Source: an uncultured Deinococcaceae bacterium (GTDB taxonomy: Bacteria; Deinococcota; Deinococci; Deinococcales; Deinococcaceae). From it: a DNA stretch of 64,000 bases. Shown one piece after another: positions 42,001-45,655 of this stretch. A program made the translations under genes and the position numbers. The notes under the pieces were generated by a model. That model was not told where the DNA came from, did not search any database, and saw only the letters and a list, made by a program, of their open reading frames with translations. Numbering within the stretch: position 1 is the first letter of the stretch; each line of letters opens with the position of its first letter. Location of the stretch: assembly GCA_964252075.1 (NCBI GenBank), contig CAXULY010000001.1, positions 1 through 64,000 on the forward strand, written 5' to 3'.

Positions 42001-45000
42001 CAAAGGCATGGCCGACGAGGACGCCAAGATCACCGAGGAGGCCAACAAGGCCGCCGACAAGGTCCAGCCGCGCTGGAAGGGCTGGGTCAGCATCGTCATC
42101 GACATCGTGATCGCCATCGCCGTGACGGCCCTCGTCATCTGCACGGGCGGCGTCGCGGGCGTGGTGCTCGGCATCGTCGCGGGCGCCGTGGGCGGCGTCC
42201 TCGGGCAGCTCGCCAAGGACGGCCTGAACGGCGAGATGTCCAGCTGGCAGACCTACGCCGCTGCGGCCCTCGGCGGCGCCATCGGCGGCGCGGTTGGCGC
42301 GGGCGGCGGCGCGCTCAGCGGGAAACTCGCGGGCATGGCGGGCGAGAAGCTCCTCGCCATGGGCGCGGGCAAGGTCGCCTCGGGCGCCGTGAAGTTCGGC
42401 GTGGACTTCGTGGGGAACAACATCACGGGCCTCGTCGGGCAGGCGGTGTCGGGCTTCATCAACAACAAGGCCTTCGGCACGCCCTTCAGCCTCTCCGACG
42501 TGTTCTCCGTCAAGAACATCGCGCAGAACGCCCTCATGACCGGCGTGGGCTCCGCCGCCGGGAAGTACTTCGAGCACAACCCCGGCGTGGTGAACCGCAT
42601 GCGCGGCATGGCGGGCTTCGGCCCGAAACCGCAGGTGCACGTCACGGCCTCGCCCGAGCACGCCGCCGCGGCGCCCGAAGGTGCGGGAACCCACGCGCCC
42701 ACCGGCAAGACCGAGGGCGCCCCAACGACCCCCAAGGGCAGCACGGAAGCACCCCGCGCGCCCACCACCGGCCGGGAGGCCCCGGTCCCGCCCGCCACCC
42801 GTGAGGCGCCCGCGCAGTCCGCGGCGCCCCGCACCACAGAAATTCCCGCGCCGCACCGCAGCAAGGCGCCGGGCGCGCCGGAGGGCCGCGGGAACACCAC
42901 GCCCCGTGCTGGGGGGAGCGAAACCACCCGGTCCGCCGGCGACCGCACCACCGAAGGCCAGACCCGCAACACGGCGCCGGAAGGGAACGCGCGCGGCGAA
43001 GGTCAGAGCCCCGAGCCCATTGCGGCCCGACACCCCGAGGGCGCGCCCGGCACTGGCGGCAAGCCTGACGTGAGCGAGCAGTTCCGCACCAACACCTTCG
43101 AGCGCAACGGCAGGACCTACGTGGAGACCACCGGGCGGCTGGGTCAGCCCGGGGAAGTGCAGACGCACCGCGATCCCTCCGCGCAGGCCCGGGTGTCCAG
43201 GGGCACCGGGGACGACGCGGGGCACCGCATTGGCGACCGCTTCGGCGCGCCCGGCGACGAGAGCAACCTCGCGCAGCAGAATTGGCGCGCGAACCGCAAC
43301 GGCACCTTCAAGCAACTGGAGAACCGCTGGGCCGCCGCCCTCAAGGACGGCGTGCAGATCGAAGCGAAAGTCACGGACATCACGCGCGCCGGCGAGACCC
43401 GCCCCTTCATGCGCCGCGCGGAGTGGACGGAAACCCACCCGGACGGCAGCGTCACGCACCACGAACTGGACTTCGCGAACACCCACACGCCGGAATCCCG
43501 CAGCAAGCAGAACATCCCGGACACCGTCAGCGAACCGCAGGCGAACAACGTGACGCACGTCGATTTCCGGAACCGCCGCGTGATCGAGGGCCCGCAGGGC
43601 CCCACGCCGCCCGAGGGCAGTGCACCCACCCGCCCCGGTAAGGCGGAGGGACGGAATGAGGGCGCACCTGAGACCGCAACTGGCGATACACCCGAAACGG
43701 TCAGCGCTCGCAACCGGCGGTCGGACGACCCGGACCTGAACCCCACGTCCGTCGCGGACCTGCCCGGCACGGTCAGCGGCACGTACGATTACACCAACCC
43801 CGGCCCGCTCTCGCCCGACAAGGCCGCCACCTTCGCCGGGCAGCGCTACAGGACCGTGAAGCTCGAACAGGACCTTGTGCTGTACCGCGTGGGTGAGGAA
43901 GGCAAACCCCTCGGGCAGTTCTTCGATACCAAGGCGCCCATGAGTGAAATCCAGGCGCGCATCGACAAGGCGGTCCTGCCGCGCTGGCCGGGCGGCGGGG
44001 AATCACCCATCCAGATGGTGCACGAGGTGCGCGTGCCCGCCGGCACCGACATCCACGTGGGCGAGGTCGCGAACCAGGGCGAGTACTACCTGGGCGGCAC
44101 CCGGCAGGTCGTCGTGATTGAACCCTGGAAGATTCCGGGGCTGGAAGTGCTGAGCAGCAAACCCGTGAACCGCATCGAGGTGCAGCCCGCCATTCCCGCC
44201 GAACGGGTCGGCGACGTGCAGCCCCTCATCGAGCGTGCCCAGGCCACGCCACCCACTGTGGACGGCGCGGGTCCCCCCACCCCGCAGGGGGGTGAGGGCG
44301 CGCCGCCCGTCAGTGCGGGCCCGAAAAGCGTGACGGCCGAGGAGCTCGCCGCTGGCCTGCCCGCGCACCTGCGCGACCGGGTGCCCGTGGAGGTCCACGC
44401 GGACCTGCCCAGCAACACGGTGCGCGTGCGGTACGAGGCGGAGAACGGCGTCATCAAGGCCGTGAAACTAGAGGCCGGGCCGCAGGCCACCCCGCGCGAC
44501 ATCGAACTGCACGCGCAGACCGTGCAGGCCATGCAGAAATATATGGGTCTGCAGGGCCGGGTGCGCGCCGCGCTCGACCGCCTCATGCGCCTCGTCGGGC
44601 TGGACGGCACGCCGAAAGTCGGGACGCGCGCGTGGGAAGCGCACCTGGAACTCCAGAAGCTGGACGGCATCATTCAGGAACGCCAGGCCGCACTCGCGGG
44701 CAGCGACGACGCCGCCACCCGAAGCCGCCTTGAGGCGGACATCCAGCACCTCGAACAGCAACTCGCGACGCACGAGGCGACCCTCGGCCGCATGGACCTG
44801 AACCCCGGTGAGGGGTACGTGGCGGCGGACGGCATCCGCAACGGCACGCACCCGAACACCCTGGAGTTCAACTTCGACCAGATCCGCAAGGACCTGTTCG
44901 GCAAGAAGGGCCGCCCCGGCTGGAGCGAGGACACCAAGCAGACCTTGAAGTCCGAGTACCCCAGCATGCACGACGCGGACACCACCAACCTCGTGCCGGG

Positions 45001-45655
45001 CAACGACCGGCGGCACATCATCGCCTTCGATTACCTCGTGAACCAGTACGTGCGGGAACTGAACGGAAGGCAGATCAGCGAGATCGCCGAGACCCTCAGG
45101 ACCGCCGGGTACGAACCGGAATCCCTGGCGATCGCAGACGTGTCCACATCCCTCAAGGCGGTCCTCAAGGAGAAATTCAACGAGCCCAAGAACCTCTTCC
45201 CGGAGGACGCCACGGAGAACCAGCGCAAAGGCCGCGAGGGTTACCAGGCGGAACAGCGGCGCGCGCGCGCGAAACTCGCGGGAGACCTCACGACCTTCGA
45301 GCTGGAATCCAGGATCATGTCCGCGCACTACACGGACGTGCCCGAAGGCCAGGTGAACGGGCAGGCGCTCGGCGAGACCGAGACGGACTTCATCACGAAC
45401 TTCGACAACGTCGAGGCGAACCTGCCCAGCTACGAAGCCCTCGAGGGCAAAACGGCGGGCATCCGCGCGGGCATGCAGCGCCCCTCGCGCCTCTACCGCG
45501 ATGCGCGGGCGGACCTCATCAACATTGAGGAAGGGCTGGCGCACCTCGCGGAGTTTTCGAAGGGCGGCAATCAGGCGTCGAACGACGCCATCCGCGCCGC
45601 CATCGAGAAAGGCATGCGCTGCGCCATCCGGCTGTCGGAACTGCTGAACCAATAA
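39050..45655 (+). CDS. large multidomain polymorphic toxin, probable CIS cargo (2201 aa)
   Basis: A/Q-rich helical stalk and TM/glycine-zipper region. Then a non-specific endonuclease motif (DDAGHRIGDRFG...N...N), an ART/TNT-like domain (LYRVG...GQFF...GGTRQ) and a C-terminal RRH...NLF...N nuclease-like domain. Confidence 0.85.
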   Translation: MTEPGFDWRSPEQREDPLRLSVRSATELLTLPQADPIAPTLEAAEARFFERAPHAQRALAQPVLEAARLERQDAAQHTERRAALQGRAEELRATLPDGALDAAHEREAQRRNPALPAHFATPPHHRAPGARASAQDWVGLYAYEMHGQQQLGGARGIEGRAAAAIQRRAATGLKDAYRDLPPEGRAEGFGGQLAALAEWPLGGQVSQAVLARLPAGERARVQAALMGAQRQRRDLGSQDARALELQGLEGQLAQGVAPLAERLPAGLPADVRRQVQLGMNAGPGAFEAAGSAMDGAAQITARSRGERTGSVPALPQADGVGAPKGRRAPKKAPAGAKRATRAKDDPKGKAKKAPANAKAEKGKGKTTAKAKGKAAGAKAPKANGKAPTAGARAKGAAPRAGKGAALPTPGAGGGAAGGPQALRAVPLAEMPKGISAKPVLQVDGTAFYDLGQWKQLEAQEAQQARQVHVGTATRTGASAPQAAPRASTAHPLKQVGRTVSAAQIKAAEAAERKAAEGEMHAFVTRSQAKIKALDGARRAVAPTVQAAAKGAQAKVAGAARTATAQLASAAASATAKAQAAAASARTKIQAEFSSTTSAIKAATRSNQAALNAQHTAAVSALAKGLTSLNSGVSSAFTAAQGRAHTIGQSVGGAALAKGNQRAAAYAAEPLPHQSGWDNFVNGKDYPAKKRQAKVDAARQVGQSYHDELIKHAEEYAAKIPEGQAQVTDGNQKLHDEYLKTLDQQHTDSVTALHDAETQFIQQATTTRDQQLQAVAQQLRQAVAGINRQHTALKGQVQQQSSSQQAAISKAAASSISGLQKAADTATSGLHKQVSGIQGQLKGKGVPDVQALKAQLGTADQEIAGGVAAAQQSITGGARTASAQLNGQAGSAAAALAGTASQGAQGMNQAGAQAASAAAQVATGAAQALKGLAKGHEAALKALTEKVKSGTQSIQKGFDADAKSVTTGVRDQLKQAGDTFQGDLTKGMADEDAKITEEANKAADKVQPRWKGWVSIVIDIVIAIAVTALVICTGGVAGVVLGIVAGAVGGVLGQLAKDGLNGEMSSWQTYAAAALGGAIGGAVGAGGGALSGKLAGMAGEKLLAMGAGKVASGAVKFGVDFVGNNITGLVGQAVSGFINNKAFGTPFSLSDVFSVKNIAQNALMTGVGSAAGKYFEHNPGVVNRMRGMAGFGPKPQVHVTASPEHAAAAPEGAGTHAPTGKTEGAPTTPKGSTEAPRAPTTGREAPVPPATREAPAQSAAPRTTEIPAPHRSKAPGAPEGRGNTTPRAGGSETTRSAGDRTTEGQTRNTAPEGNARGEGQSPEPIAARHPEGAPGTGGKPDVSEQFRTNTFERNGRTYVETTGRLGQPGEVQTHRDPSAQARVSRGTGDDAGHRIGDRFGAPGDESNLAQQNWRANRNGTFKQLENRWAAALKDGVQIEAKVTDITRAGETRPFMRRAEWTETHPDGSVTHHELDFANTHTPESRSKQNIPDTVSEPQANNVTHVDFRNRRVIEGPQGPTPPEGSAPTRPGKAEGRNEGAPETATGDTPETVSARNRRSDDPDLNPTSVADLPGTVSGTYDYTNPGPLSPDKAATFAGQRYRTVKLEQDLVLYRVGEEGKPLGQFFDTKAPMSEIQARIDKAVLPRWPGGGESPIQMVHEVRVPAGTDIHVGEVANQGEYYLGGTRQVVVIEPWKIPGLEVLSSKPVNRIEVQPAIPAERVGDVQPLIERAQATPPTVDGAGPPTPQGGEGAPPVSAGPKSVTAEELAAGLPAHLRDRVPVEVHADLPSNTVRVRYEAENGVIKAVKLEAGPQATPRDIELHAQTVQAMQKYMGLQGRVRAALDRLMRLVGLDGTPKVGTRAWEAHLELQKLDGIIQERQAALAGSDDAATRSRLEADIQHLEQQLATHEATLGRMDLNPGEGYVAADGIRNGTHPNTLEFNFDQIRKDLFGKKGRPGWSEDTKQTLKSEYPSMHDADTTNLVPGNDRRHIIAFDYLVNQYVRELNGRQISEIAETLRTAGYEPESLAIADVSTSLKAVLKEKFNEPKNLFPEDATENQRKGREGYQAEQRRARAKLAGDLTTFELESRIMSAHYTDVPEGQVNGQALGETETDFITNFDNVEANLPSYEALEGKTAGIRAGMQRPSRLYRDARADLINIEEGLAHLAEFSKGGNQASNDAIRAAIEKGMRCAIRLSELLNQ

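Follow-up and report, generated by a model that had tools for sequence, protein, structure and literature searches.

How a single polypeptide can come to carry several toxin warheads is the question raised by a long gene (positions 39029 to 45655) of an uncultured Deinococcaceae bacterium (GenBank assembly GCA_964252075.1), located on contig CAXULY010000001.1 within the window analysed here (the whole stretch of 64,000 nt, positions 1 to 64,000 of the forward strand). A first-pass annotation, made from the sequence without database searches, had proposed that the product bears three different toxin-like domains in tandem and that these warheads had accumulated rather than been swapped. The answer favoured by the present analysis is that the gene probably encodes a polymorphic-toxin cargo associated with an extracellular contractile injection system (eCIS), in which three warheads (D1, D2, and D3) have been stacked by in-frame cassette insertion. 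In the usual plan of this class, a leader is followed by a long helical trunk, a membrane-inserting region, a pre-toxin domain, and one exchangeable C-terminal warhead; in the present toxin, an Endonuclease_NS_2 DNase/RNase and a Tne2/TNT-type NADase would have been added in frame, after the membrane region and ahead of the pre-toxin domain. Residue numbers refer to the 2,208-aa product translated from 39029. Residues 1575–2208, used to query a public protein library, match 1,449 proteins at E≤0.001 (the domain counts given below cover the 150 listed representatives), and genome-wide relatives were sought in 364 genomes of the phylum.

The toxin occupies one stop-free frame, and the same product is present in the protein library as P0002 (2,201 aa), which begins at an ATG seven codons further in (39050). 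All of the motifs quoted in the first-pass annotation are found in this frame (DDAGHRIGD at residue 1395, nt 43211; ATFAGQRY at 1600; GGTRQ at 1689; GEGYVAADG at 1927, nt 44807; DRRHII at 1993; ENQRKG at 2063) and each of the three segments has relatives, in agreement with the proposal of three tandem toxin-like domains on one polypeptide. The Pro/Thr/Gly linkers described between them are also borne out by composition, since Pro, Gly, Thr, and Ala abound in all three (15–21% Pro, with 13% Gly and 13% Thr in two of the three). The G+C content at third codon positions (GC3) is 0.92 for the gene and 0.76–0.98 for its individual segments. Short metagenome contigs from four studies, 95–99% identical, cover parts of the gene with no insertions or deletions, and therefore close relatives of the toxin gene exist in several environmental samples; those matching positions 43000–45700 derive from studies labelled farm, leaf, biocrust, and wetland. 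Upstream of the warheads, the helical trunk has weak Apolipoprotein and spectrin-like Pfam matches, and residues 354–1176 are 30% identical to P0003, the closest full-length relative. The membrane region (Kyte-Doolittle averages above 1.6 in the 19-residue windows starting at residues 1016–1045) is present in 25 of the 56 pre-toxin-domain proteins. A promoter and terminator scan of positions 38800–48300 gave nothing above shuffled controls.

The call of a His-Me non-specific endonuclease for the first domain proves sound. Residues 1380–1459 match Endonuclea_NS_2 (PF13930) at E 7.5e-11, with 42.8 bits against a curated cut-off of 27, and the sole PDB sequence match of D1 is EssD (8guo_B), the nuclease of a type VII secretion system (T7SS). 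The His-Me motif is kept, with DDAGHRIGDRFGAPGDESNLAQQNWRANR in D1 aligned to DDGGHLIARMFGGSKDIDNLVAQSKFINR in EssD (pattern GH...NL...N), such that DDGGH...NL...INR of EssD pairs with DDAGH...NL...ANR of D1. A domain 51% identical to D1 forms the last 175 aa of a 449-aa protein encoded after VgrG and PAAR genes on a metagenome contig (no open reading frame (ORF) lies behind it there), and cores ~40% identical to D1 end CdiA-like proteins on Ralstonia and Salmonella plasmids. Because these relatives end a VgrG/PAAR-linked effector and CdiA-like proteins, D1 is predicted to be a complete warhead of the terminal type that is internal here.

For D2, described initially as resembling ART/TNT-like NAD-using toxins, evidence comes from fold and context. 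No Pfam family matches residues 1575–1714 at E≤10 (hence no TNT match) and a profile of 54 family sequences has no PDB sequence match, and D2 is therefore placed in the TNT-like fold class and not in Pfam TNT. The AlphaFold2 model from the 54 sequences reaches a mean predicted local distance difference test (pLDDT) score of 94.2, and Foldseek, the check suggested for this segment, returns toxin NAD(P)+ glycohydrolases, with Tne2 first (E 1.2e-4), then Serratia Rhs1-CT, Tse6, fungal NADases, and TNT. Structural alignment with VIA-align gives the same order, with Z 12.4 for Tne2 (6b12_A; root-mean-square deviation 2.1 Å over 106 residues), 10.2 for Rhs1-CT (6xtd_A), 9.1 for Tse6 (4zv0_A), 8.2–6.2 for fungal NADases, and 5.1 for TNT; all 12 listed matches at Z≥5 are NAD(P)+ glycohydrolases of the TNT-like group, to which Rhs1-CT (6XTD) belongs as an experimentally shown enzyme according to a passage of PMC10539506. 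The TNT-like, NAD-using part of the original description is borne out at the level of fold, the nearest solved structures being NAD(P)+ glycohydrolases and not ADP-ribosyltransferases, which align only at Z 2–3.8. None of the 11 invariant and 17 near-invariant positions in the 54-sequence family alignment has changed in D2, which is best described as a Tne2/Tse6/TNT-fold NAD(P)+ glycohydrolase-like module, an assignment that the model supports at the level of fold and context. The module occurs in 92 of the 150 representatives, and in all 92 of these other carriers it ends 0–45 residues from the C-terminus (within 8 in 84 of them); the present protein continues for 494 residues beyond D2, an internal placement unlike that in any of the 92. 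Among 20 carriers scanned with Pfam are Rhs, two-partner secretion (TPS)/haemagglutinin (CdiA-type), PAAR-like, and PT-TG proteins. At 60 genome loci of D2 relatives, found with a four-sequence D2 alignment (the single D2 protein as query found none), the frame stops 0–8 codons past the match in 55.

What had been taken for a helical spacer ending GEGYVAADG is indeed a segment at that place, but it is more than a spacer: residues 1745–1926 form a conserved pre-toxin domain, internal in 56 of the 150 representatives, with varying sequence beyond it. Aligned proteins diverge after NPGxG[FY]VAA, where conservation of the domain stops, and the motif therefore behaves like the pre-toxin boundary of a polymorphic toxin. 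The domain has no Pfam or PDB sequence match. A Pfam scan of 26 carriers revealed eCIS_core in 5, annexin repeats in 12, apolipoprotein-like matches in 3, and PT-HINT in 3, with one C-terminal end each of Ntox28, an XOO_2897-type deaminase, and an adenosine-deaminase match; two of the five eCIS_core proteins (P0023 and P0066) match the D3 part of the query alone, without the pre-toxin domain. Among the 25 proteins with both features, the membrane region and the pre-toxin domain are 70–268 aa apart in 23, 425 aa apart in P0003, and 555 aa apart in the present protein. P0003 aligns on either side of the D1–D2 stretch (30–31% identity) and not across it; where the present toxin has D1 and D2, residues 1019–1444 of P0003 hold a different domain of ~200 aa that matches nothing in Pfam. 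D2 is accompanied by the pre-toxin domain or by D3 in none of the other listed representatives. Trunks of this kind may have a second slot for cassettes, flanked by the membrane region and the pre-toxin domain.

D3 has homologous C-termini in three library proteins (P0003, P0023, and P0066) and in five of the phylum's genomes (G022, G056, G040, G075, and G158), and the protein of G158 has the same membrane region as the present toxin. Invariant residues of the module (module numbering) are R36, P37, R68, H70, F74, G101, L130, N138, G142, D177, G181, G185, and L247. The model built from nine sequences (pLDDT 84, predicted TM score 0.52) is almost all helical, with R68–H70 at a helix start (pLDDT 70–77) and a pLDDT of 58 around N138. 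The first-pass label of an HNH-like toxin survives in its second word. No HNH-type Pfam family was matched at E≤5 by any of the nine D3 members, a PF07510 search of the genome did not match D3, and comparison of D3 with 15 GmrSD_C domains by hhalign gave a probability of 0.2%; together with the nearly all-helical model, these results leave the HNH label unsupported. In the ESM Atlas, the clusters nearest to D3 residues 20–185 are GmrSD_C, GH-E, AHH, and GHH2, with scores (0.79–0.90) that serve as leads only, and HNH is likewise a lead for D3, not a finding. A wide VIA search returned generic three-helix-bundle matches (Z≤9.9) to residues 183–282 only, and the first 180 residues were therefore barely probed. 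Word-index homologue searches (with D3 among longer proteins, and with residues 1000–1289 of P0023) found nothing beyond the query. Its context suggests that D3 is a toxin module, since it forms a cassette at the C-terminus and is followed by an immunity family of its own.

Putative immunity genes, overlooked in the first-pass annotation, lie directly downstream of the toxin gene (Table 1). Homologues of I3 directly follow the D3 toxin in three of the five other loci: G158 (full-length, E 1.2e-6), G056 (E 1.3e-3), and G040 (E 5e-22 against a three-sequence profile). I3 is single copy in the genome, and weak partial matches occur in G082, G083, and G085 (E about 5e-4). At the G075 locus, tandem paralogous genes of ~190 aa (2958–3512 and 3614–4207, forward strand) lie behind the D3-type toxin and are similar to the gene in G022; the downstream genes of these two genomes may represent a second D3 immunity family. 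For D2, a downstream ORF could be called at 58 of the 60 loci, of which 54 encode 80–110 aa and nearly all overlap the toxin stop codon. A profile of those 54 ORFs has I2 as its sole match, both in the window (E 9.4e-20) and in the genome (E 6.1e-18), and Pfam DUF6966 matches I2 (E 2.6e-8) as well as 23 of 24 ORFs downstream of D2 relatives elsewhere. No paper in the literature collection searched mentions DUF6966; by sequence association it is the likely immunity partner of an unnamed NADase-fold warhead family that is widespread and is carried on Rhs, CdiA, and PAAR toxins. The immunity genes stand in mirror order to the warheads, the protein reading D1-D2-D3 and the DNA reading I3 then I2, with no toxin remnants found between the immunity genes. 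This order, together with the terminal position of all three modules elsewhere, lends indirect support to the accumulation, rather than exchange, of warheads that had been proposed.

A contractile injection system locus, likewise overlooked in the first-pass annotation, is found 2.5 kb from the toxin gene. The leader of the toxin (residues 56–288) is 35% identical to residues 52–295 of P0023 (BLASTP, E 1e-15), a homology that breaks off ~15 residues into the eCIS_core domain of P0023, and P0023 and P0066 are the D3 relatives that carry eCIS_core. An eCIS locus, a long trunk, and a C-terminal toxin, all features by which eCIS toxins are recognised, are thus found here. As in polymorphic toxins, the warheads are common to unrelated trunks, D1 occurring in type VI secretion system (T6SS) and CdiA proteins, D2 in Rhs, CdiA, PAAR-like, and PT-TG proteins, and D3 in eCIS_core proteins and on the membrane-region trunk; an immunity gene was found for D2 and D3 and not for D1.

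A scheme that would accommodate these features begins with the leader loading the toxin onto the particle, contraction of which would deliver it. The hydrophobic, glycine-zipper region would help the C-terminal part across the target membrane, a role reportedly proposed also for the membrane region of transmembrane-domain T6SS effectors. D1 would then degrade nucleic acid and D2 deplete NAD(P)+, with the activity of D3 acting alongside, and the linkers or the NPGEGYVAA boundary might be cleaved, perhaps by the eCIS_core protein encoded nearby. If the three warheads act together, only a target with several immunities at once would be protected. Since the role of the immunity proteins would be to shield the producer and its kin, the targets are more likely bacterial. 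As to origin, a [pre-toxin-D3-I3] cassette may have been inserted in frame between an older D2 warhead and I2; a single insertion of this kind is suggested because D2 ends at its natural C-terminus and runs into linker 3, and because I2 lies behind I3. The nesting would be complete if the ORF at 47055–47750, a candidate by its position, were the partner of D1. A broader proposal, possible rather than probable, is that the mirror order records stepwise, nested in-frame cassette insertions, and that the second slot would allow trunks of this type to become 'polytoxins' with multiple warheads, a single shot of which would confront bacteria with the need for several immunities at once.

Several observations count against cargo built by stacking. 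The case is drawn from the gene sequence and predicted models, and the activities of the modules are predictions. Rhs1-CT has a conserved aromatic Phe1386 and a catalytic Gln1452 (as given in a passage of PMC10539506), and F57/F58 and Q109/Q119, invariant or nearly so in the D2 family alignment, are candidate counterparts. The Foldseek comparison suggested for the third segment gave no match to D3 at E≤0.001 in the PDB or BFVD, toxin or non-toxin, and the ~185-aa genes of G022 and G075, tried as relatives of I3, could not be linked to it (hhalign probability 15%), leaving two of the five D3 loci untied. The search for a D1 immunity gene came up empty: neither the window nor the genome has a match to the ~110-aa family behind two plasmid-borne D1-like CdiA toxins, and the ORF at 47055–47750 (231 aa) has no relative in the 364 genomes and no Pfam or NCBIfam match. 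The missing D1 partner, module activities that are predictions, and an internal D2 placement that is unique among the 92 carriers examined would all suit an alternative in which only the terminal D3 works, whereas D1 and D2 are older warheads, displaced and read through following a recombination, whose present role is that of spacer or passenger sequence. This alternative is nevertheless unlikely: D1 keeps the DDxGH...NL...N motif aligned to EssD, D2 has lost none of the conserved residues of its family, an intact cognate D2 immunity gene is retained, and codon bias is uniform across the modules with no sign of decay.

The link to the injection system can be doubted on other grounds. The toxin gene and the nearest eCIS genes lie on opposite strands and converge, 2.5 kb apart; the toxin has no Pfam match to eCIS_core (PF13699, HExxH), the one recognised feature of eCIS toxins that is missing; and the only eCIS_core of the genome (HELTH) is near the C-terminus of a 1,643-aa protein of the same locus. 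Taken with the strongly hydrophobic region, these points could describe a membrane-anchored or otherwise exported toxin that merely sits beside an eCIS locus, an explanation considered improbable, and more so than inactive inner warheads, given a leader homologous to that of an eCIS_core toxin, a trunk, membrane region, and pre-toxin domain in common with eCIS_core-carrying proteins, the eCIS_core of two D3 relatives, and the position of the sole toxin of its kind in the genome at the eCIS locus. Least probable by far is that separate toxin genes were fused into one long frame by an error of assembly or sequencing. The host genome is a draft of 104 contigs and each contig from other samples covers less than the whole gene, but the independent metagenome contigs bridge three module junctions (D1 end to linker 2, linker 2 to D2, and linker 3 to the pre-toxin domain) without insertions or deletions, coverage at the junction from the D2 end to linker 3 amounting to just 29 nt on the D2 side, and the linkers are typical, in frame, and of high GC3. 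An eCIS cargo with three stacked warheads therefore stays the preferred explanation.

Table 1. Coordinates of the toxin gene, its parts, and the genes that follow it (aa, residues of the toxin)
Feature	Position (nt)	Strand	Remarks
Toxin gene	39029..45655	+	2,208 aa; alternative ATG start 39050
Leader, aa 1-330	39029..40018	+	BLASTP to P0023; without HExxH peptidase core
Lys/Ala-rich stretch, aa 331-440, then Ala/Gln-rich helical trunk, aa 441-1015	40019..42073	+	Ala 30%, Lys 20%
Hydrophobic glycine-zipper membrane region, aa 1016-1190	42074..42598	+	Begins at conserved QPRWKG motif
Linker 1, aa 1191-1339	42599..43045	+	Ala, Pro, Gly, Thr-rich composition
D1, predicted Endonuclea_NS_2 nuclease module, aa 1340-1520	43046..43588	+	Pfam PF13930
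Linker 2, aa 1521-1574	43589..43750	+	Pro 19%, Gly 13%, Thr 13%
D2, NAD(P)+ glycohydrolase-like module, aa 1575-1714	43751..44170	+	Tne2/Tse6/TNT fold, AlphaFold2 model
Linker 3, aa 1715-1744	44171..44260	+	Pro 21% (counted over aa 1715-1767)
Pre-toxin domain 'D2b', aa 1745-1926	44261..44806	+	Ends at NPGEGYVAA
D3, putative C-terminal toxin module, aa 1927-2208, and stop codon	44807..45655	+	Homologous C-termini elsewhere
I3, putative D3 immunity protein, 167 aa	45659..46162	+	Weak HEAT_2; starts 3 nt past toxin stop
I2, likely D2 immunity protein, 98 aa	46352..46648	+	Pfam DUF6966
Orphan ORF, 231 aa	47055..47750	+	GC3 0.88; candidate D1 immunity gene by position only
Small protein with two transmembrane segments, 144 aa	47737..48171	+	Weak DUF3592 match, E 0.043
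eCIS genes: VgrG-like spike, CIS tube, kinase-FHA protein, FHA-P2_I, baseplate J, gp25, AAA ATPase, Pvc16_N, PAAR	48187..61601	-	Pfam
eCIS sheath	62034..63620	+	Pfam; followed by two gp19 tube genes and the 1,643-aa eCIS_core protein past the window

Some of the neighbouring genes have features of their own. The 1,643-aa eCIS_core protein (contig positions 65368–70299, forward strand) is Pro/Ala-rich and apparently disordered, and it contains a pair of long internal repeats that are almost identical. Inside the eCIS baseplate operon, a 1,488-aa protein (50462–54928, reverse strand) combines Ser/Thr kinase, FHA, and Ig-like domains, and a P2_I-type baseplate protein (54925–55809, reverse strand) has an N-terminal FHA domain; the kinase/FHA proteins hint at phospho-dependent control of the particle. 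On the other side of the toxin gene, a divergent gene (36900–38978, reverse strand) that starts 50 nt from the toxin start encodes a von Willebrand factor A protein of 692 aa, which weakly matches DUF4381.

The particles of eCIS are being developed as protein-delivery tools, and their natural cargo is poorly known. If the proposed reading is true, three toxin modules and a membrane-crossing region show how much one eCIS polypeptide can carry, and the presence of two immunity genes points to bacteria as the targets of this eCIS. The nested toxin and immunity order offers a simple, testable model for the gain of warheads instead of their swap, and DUF6966 acquires a likely immunity role.

Several effector domains on one protein are also seen in MARTX toxins, each of which carries several. 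Among Endonuclease_NS_2 toxins, EsaD/EssD and others of the T7SS, contact-dependent inhibition (CDI), and T6SS belong to the same Pfam family as D1 and have the same His-Me motif; in contrast to them, D1 is internal, and the immunity type of its two CdiA-borne relatives is absent from the present genome. D2 has the predicted fold of Tne2, Tse6/Tne1, Serratia Rhs1-CT, and M. tuberculosis TNT (in the passages of PMC10539506) and resembles them as a small module of C-terminal type with a small immunity protein, but its identity to them is 13–21%, its immunity family is DUF6966 instead, and it is internal, eCIS-linked, and represented here by sequence and model. Known eCIS-associated toxins are described in passages of Geller et al. 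(2021, PMC8213781) as a DUF4157 N-terminus, a linker of more than 1,000 aa, and a C-terminal toxin, and PVC-metallopeptidase toxins appear in passages of Zhang et al. (2012, PMC3482391); most eCIS-associated toxins are said in passages of these two papers to be without adjacent immunity genes. The present toxin is like the eCIS_core/DUF4157 toxins so described in its eCIS locus, leader homology, very long trunk, pre-toxin domain, and D3, and differs from them in having no HExxH domain, three modules instead of one, and at least two probable cognate immunity genes. Zhang et al. (PMC3482391) mention in passing 'polytoxins' with several toxin domains, which are alike in that respect, in passages that give no immunity order or eCIS linkage. 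The WHIX 'double-blade' effectors of the T6SS, presented in passages of PMC12135965 as a new class in 2025 with two domains and two immunity proteins, are alike in having more than one independent toxic domain per effector, each with its own immunity protein. In WHIX effectors the two domains flank a secretion domain and are periplasmic, with immunity genes on both sides, whereas the present toxin has three tandem domains after the trunk, predicted to be cytoplasmic, and immunity genes that are all downstream, mirror-ordered, and associated with an eCIS. Set against the main texts of these papers, whose supplementary tables may list similar architectures, a probable three-warhead eCIS toxin with mirror-ordered immunity genes is what is new here.

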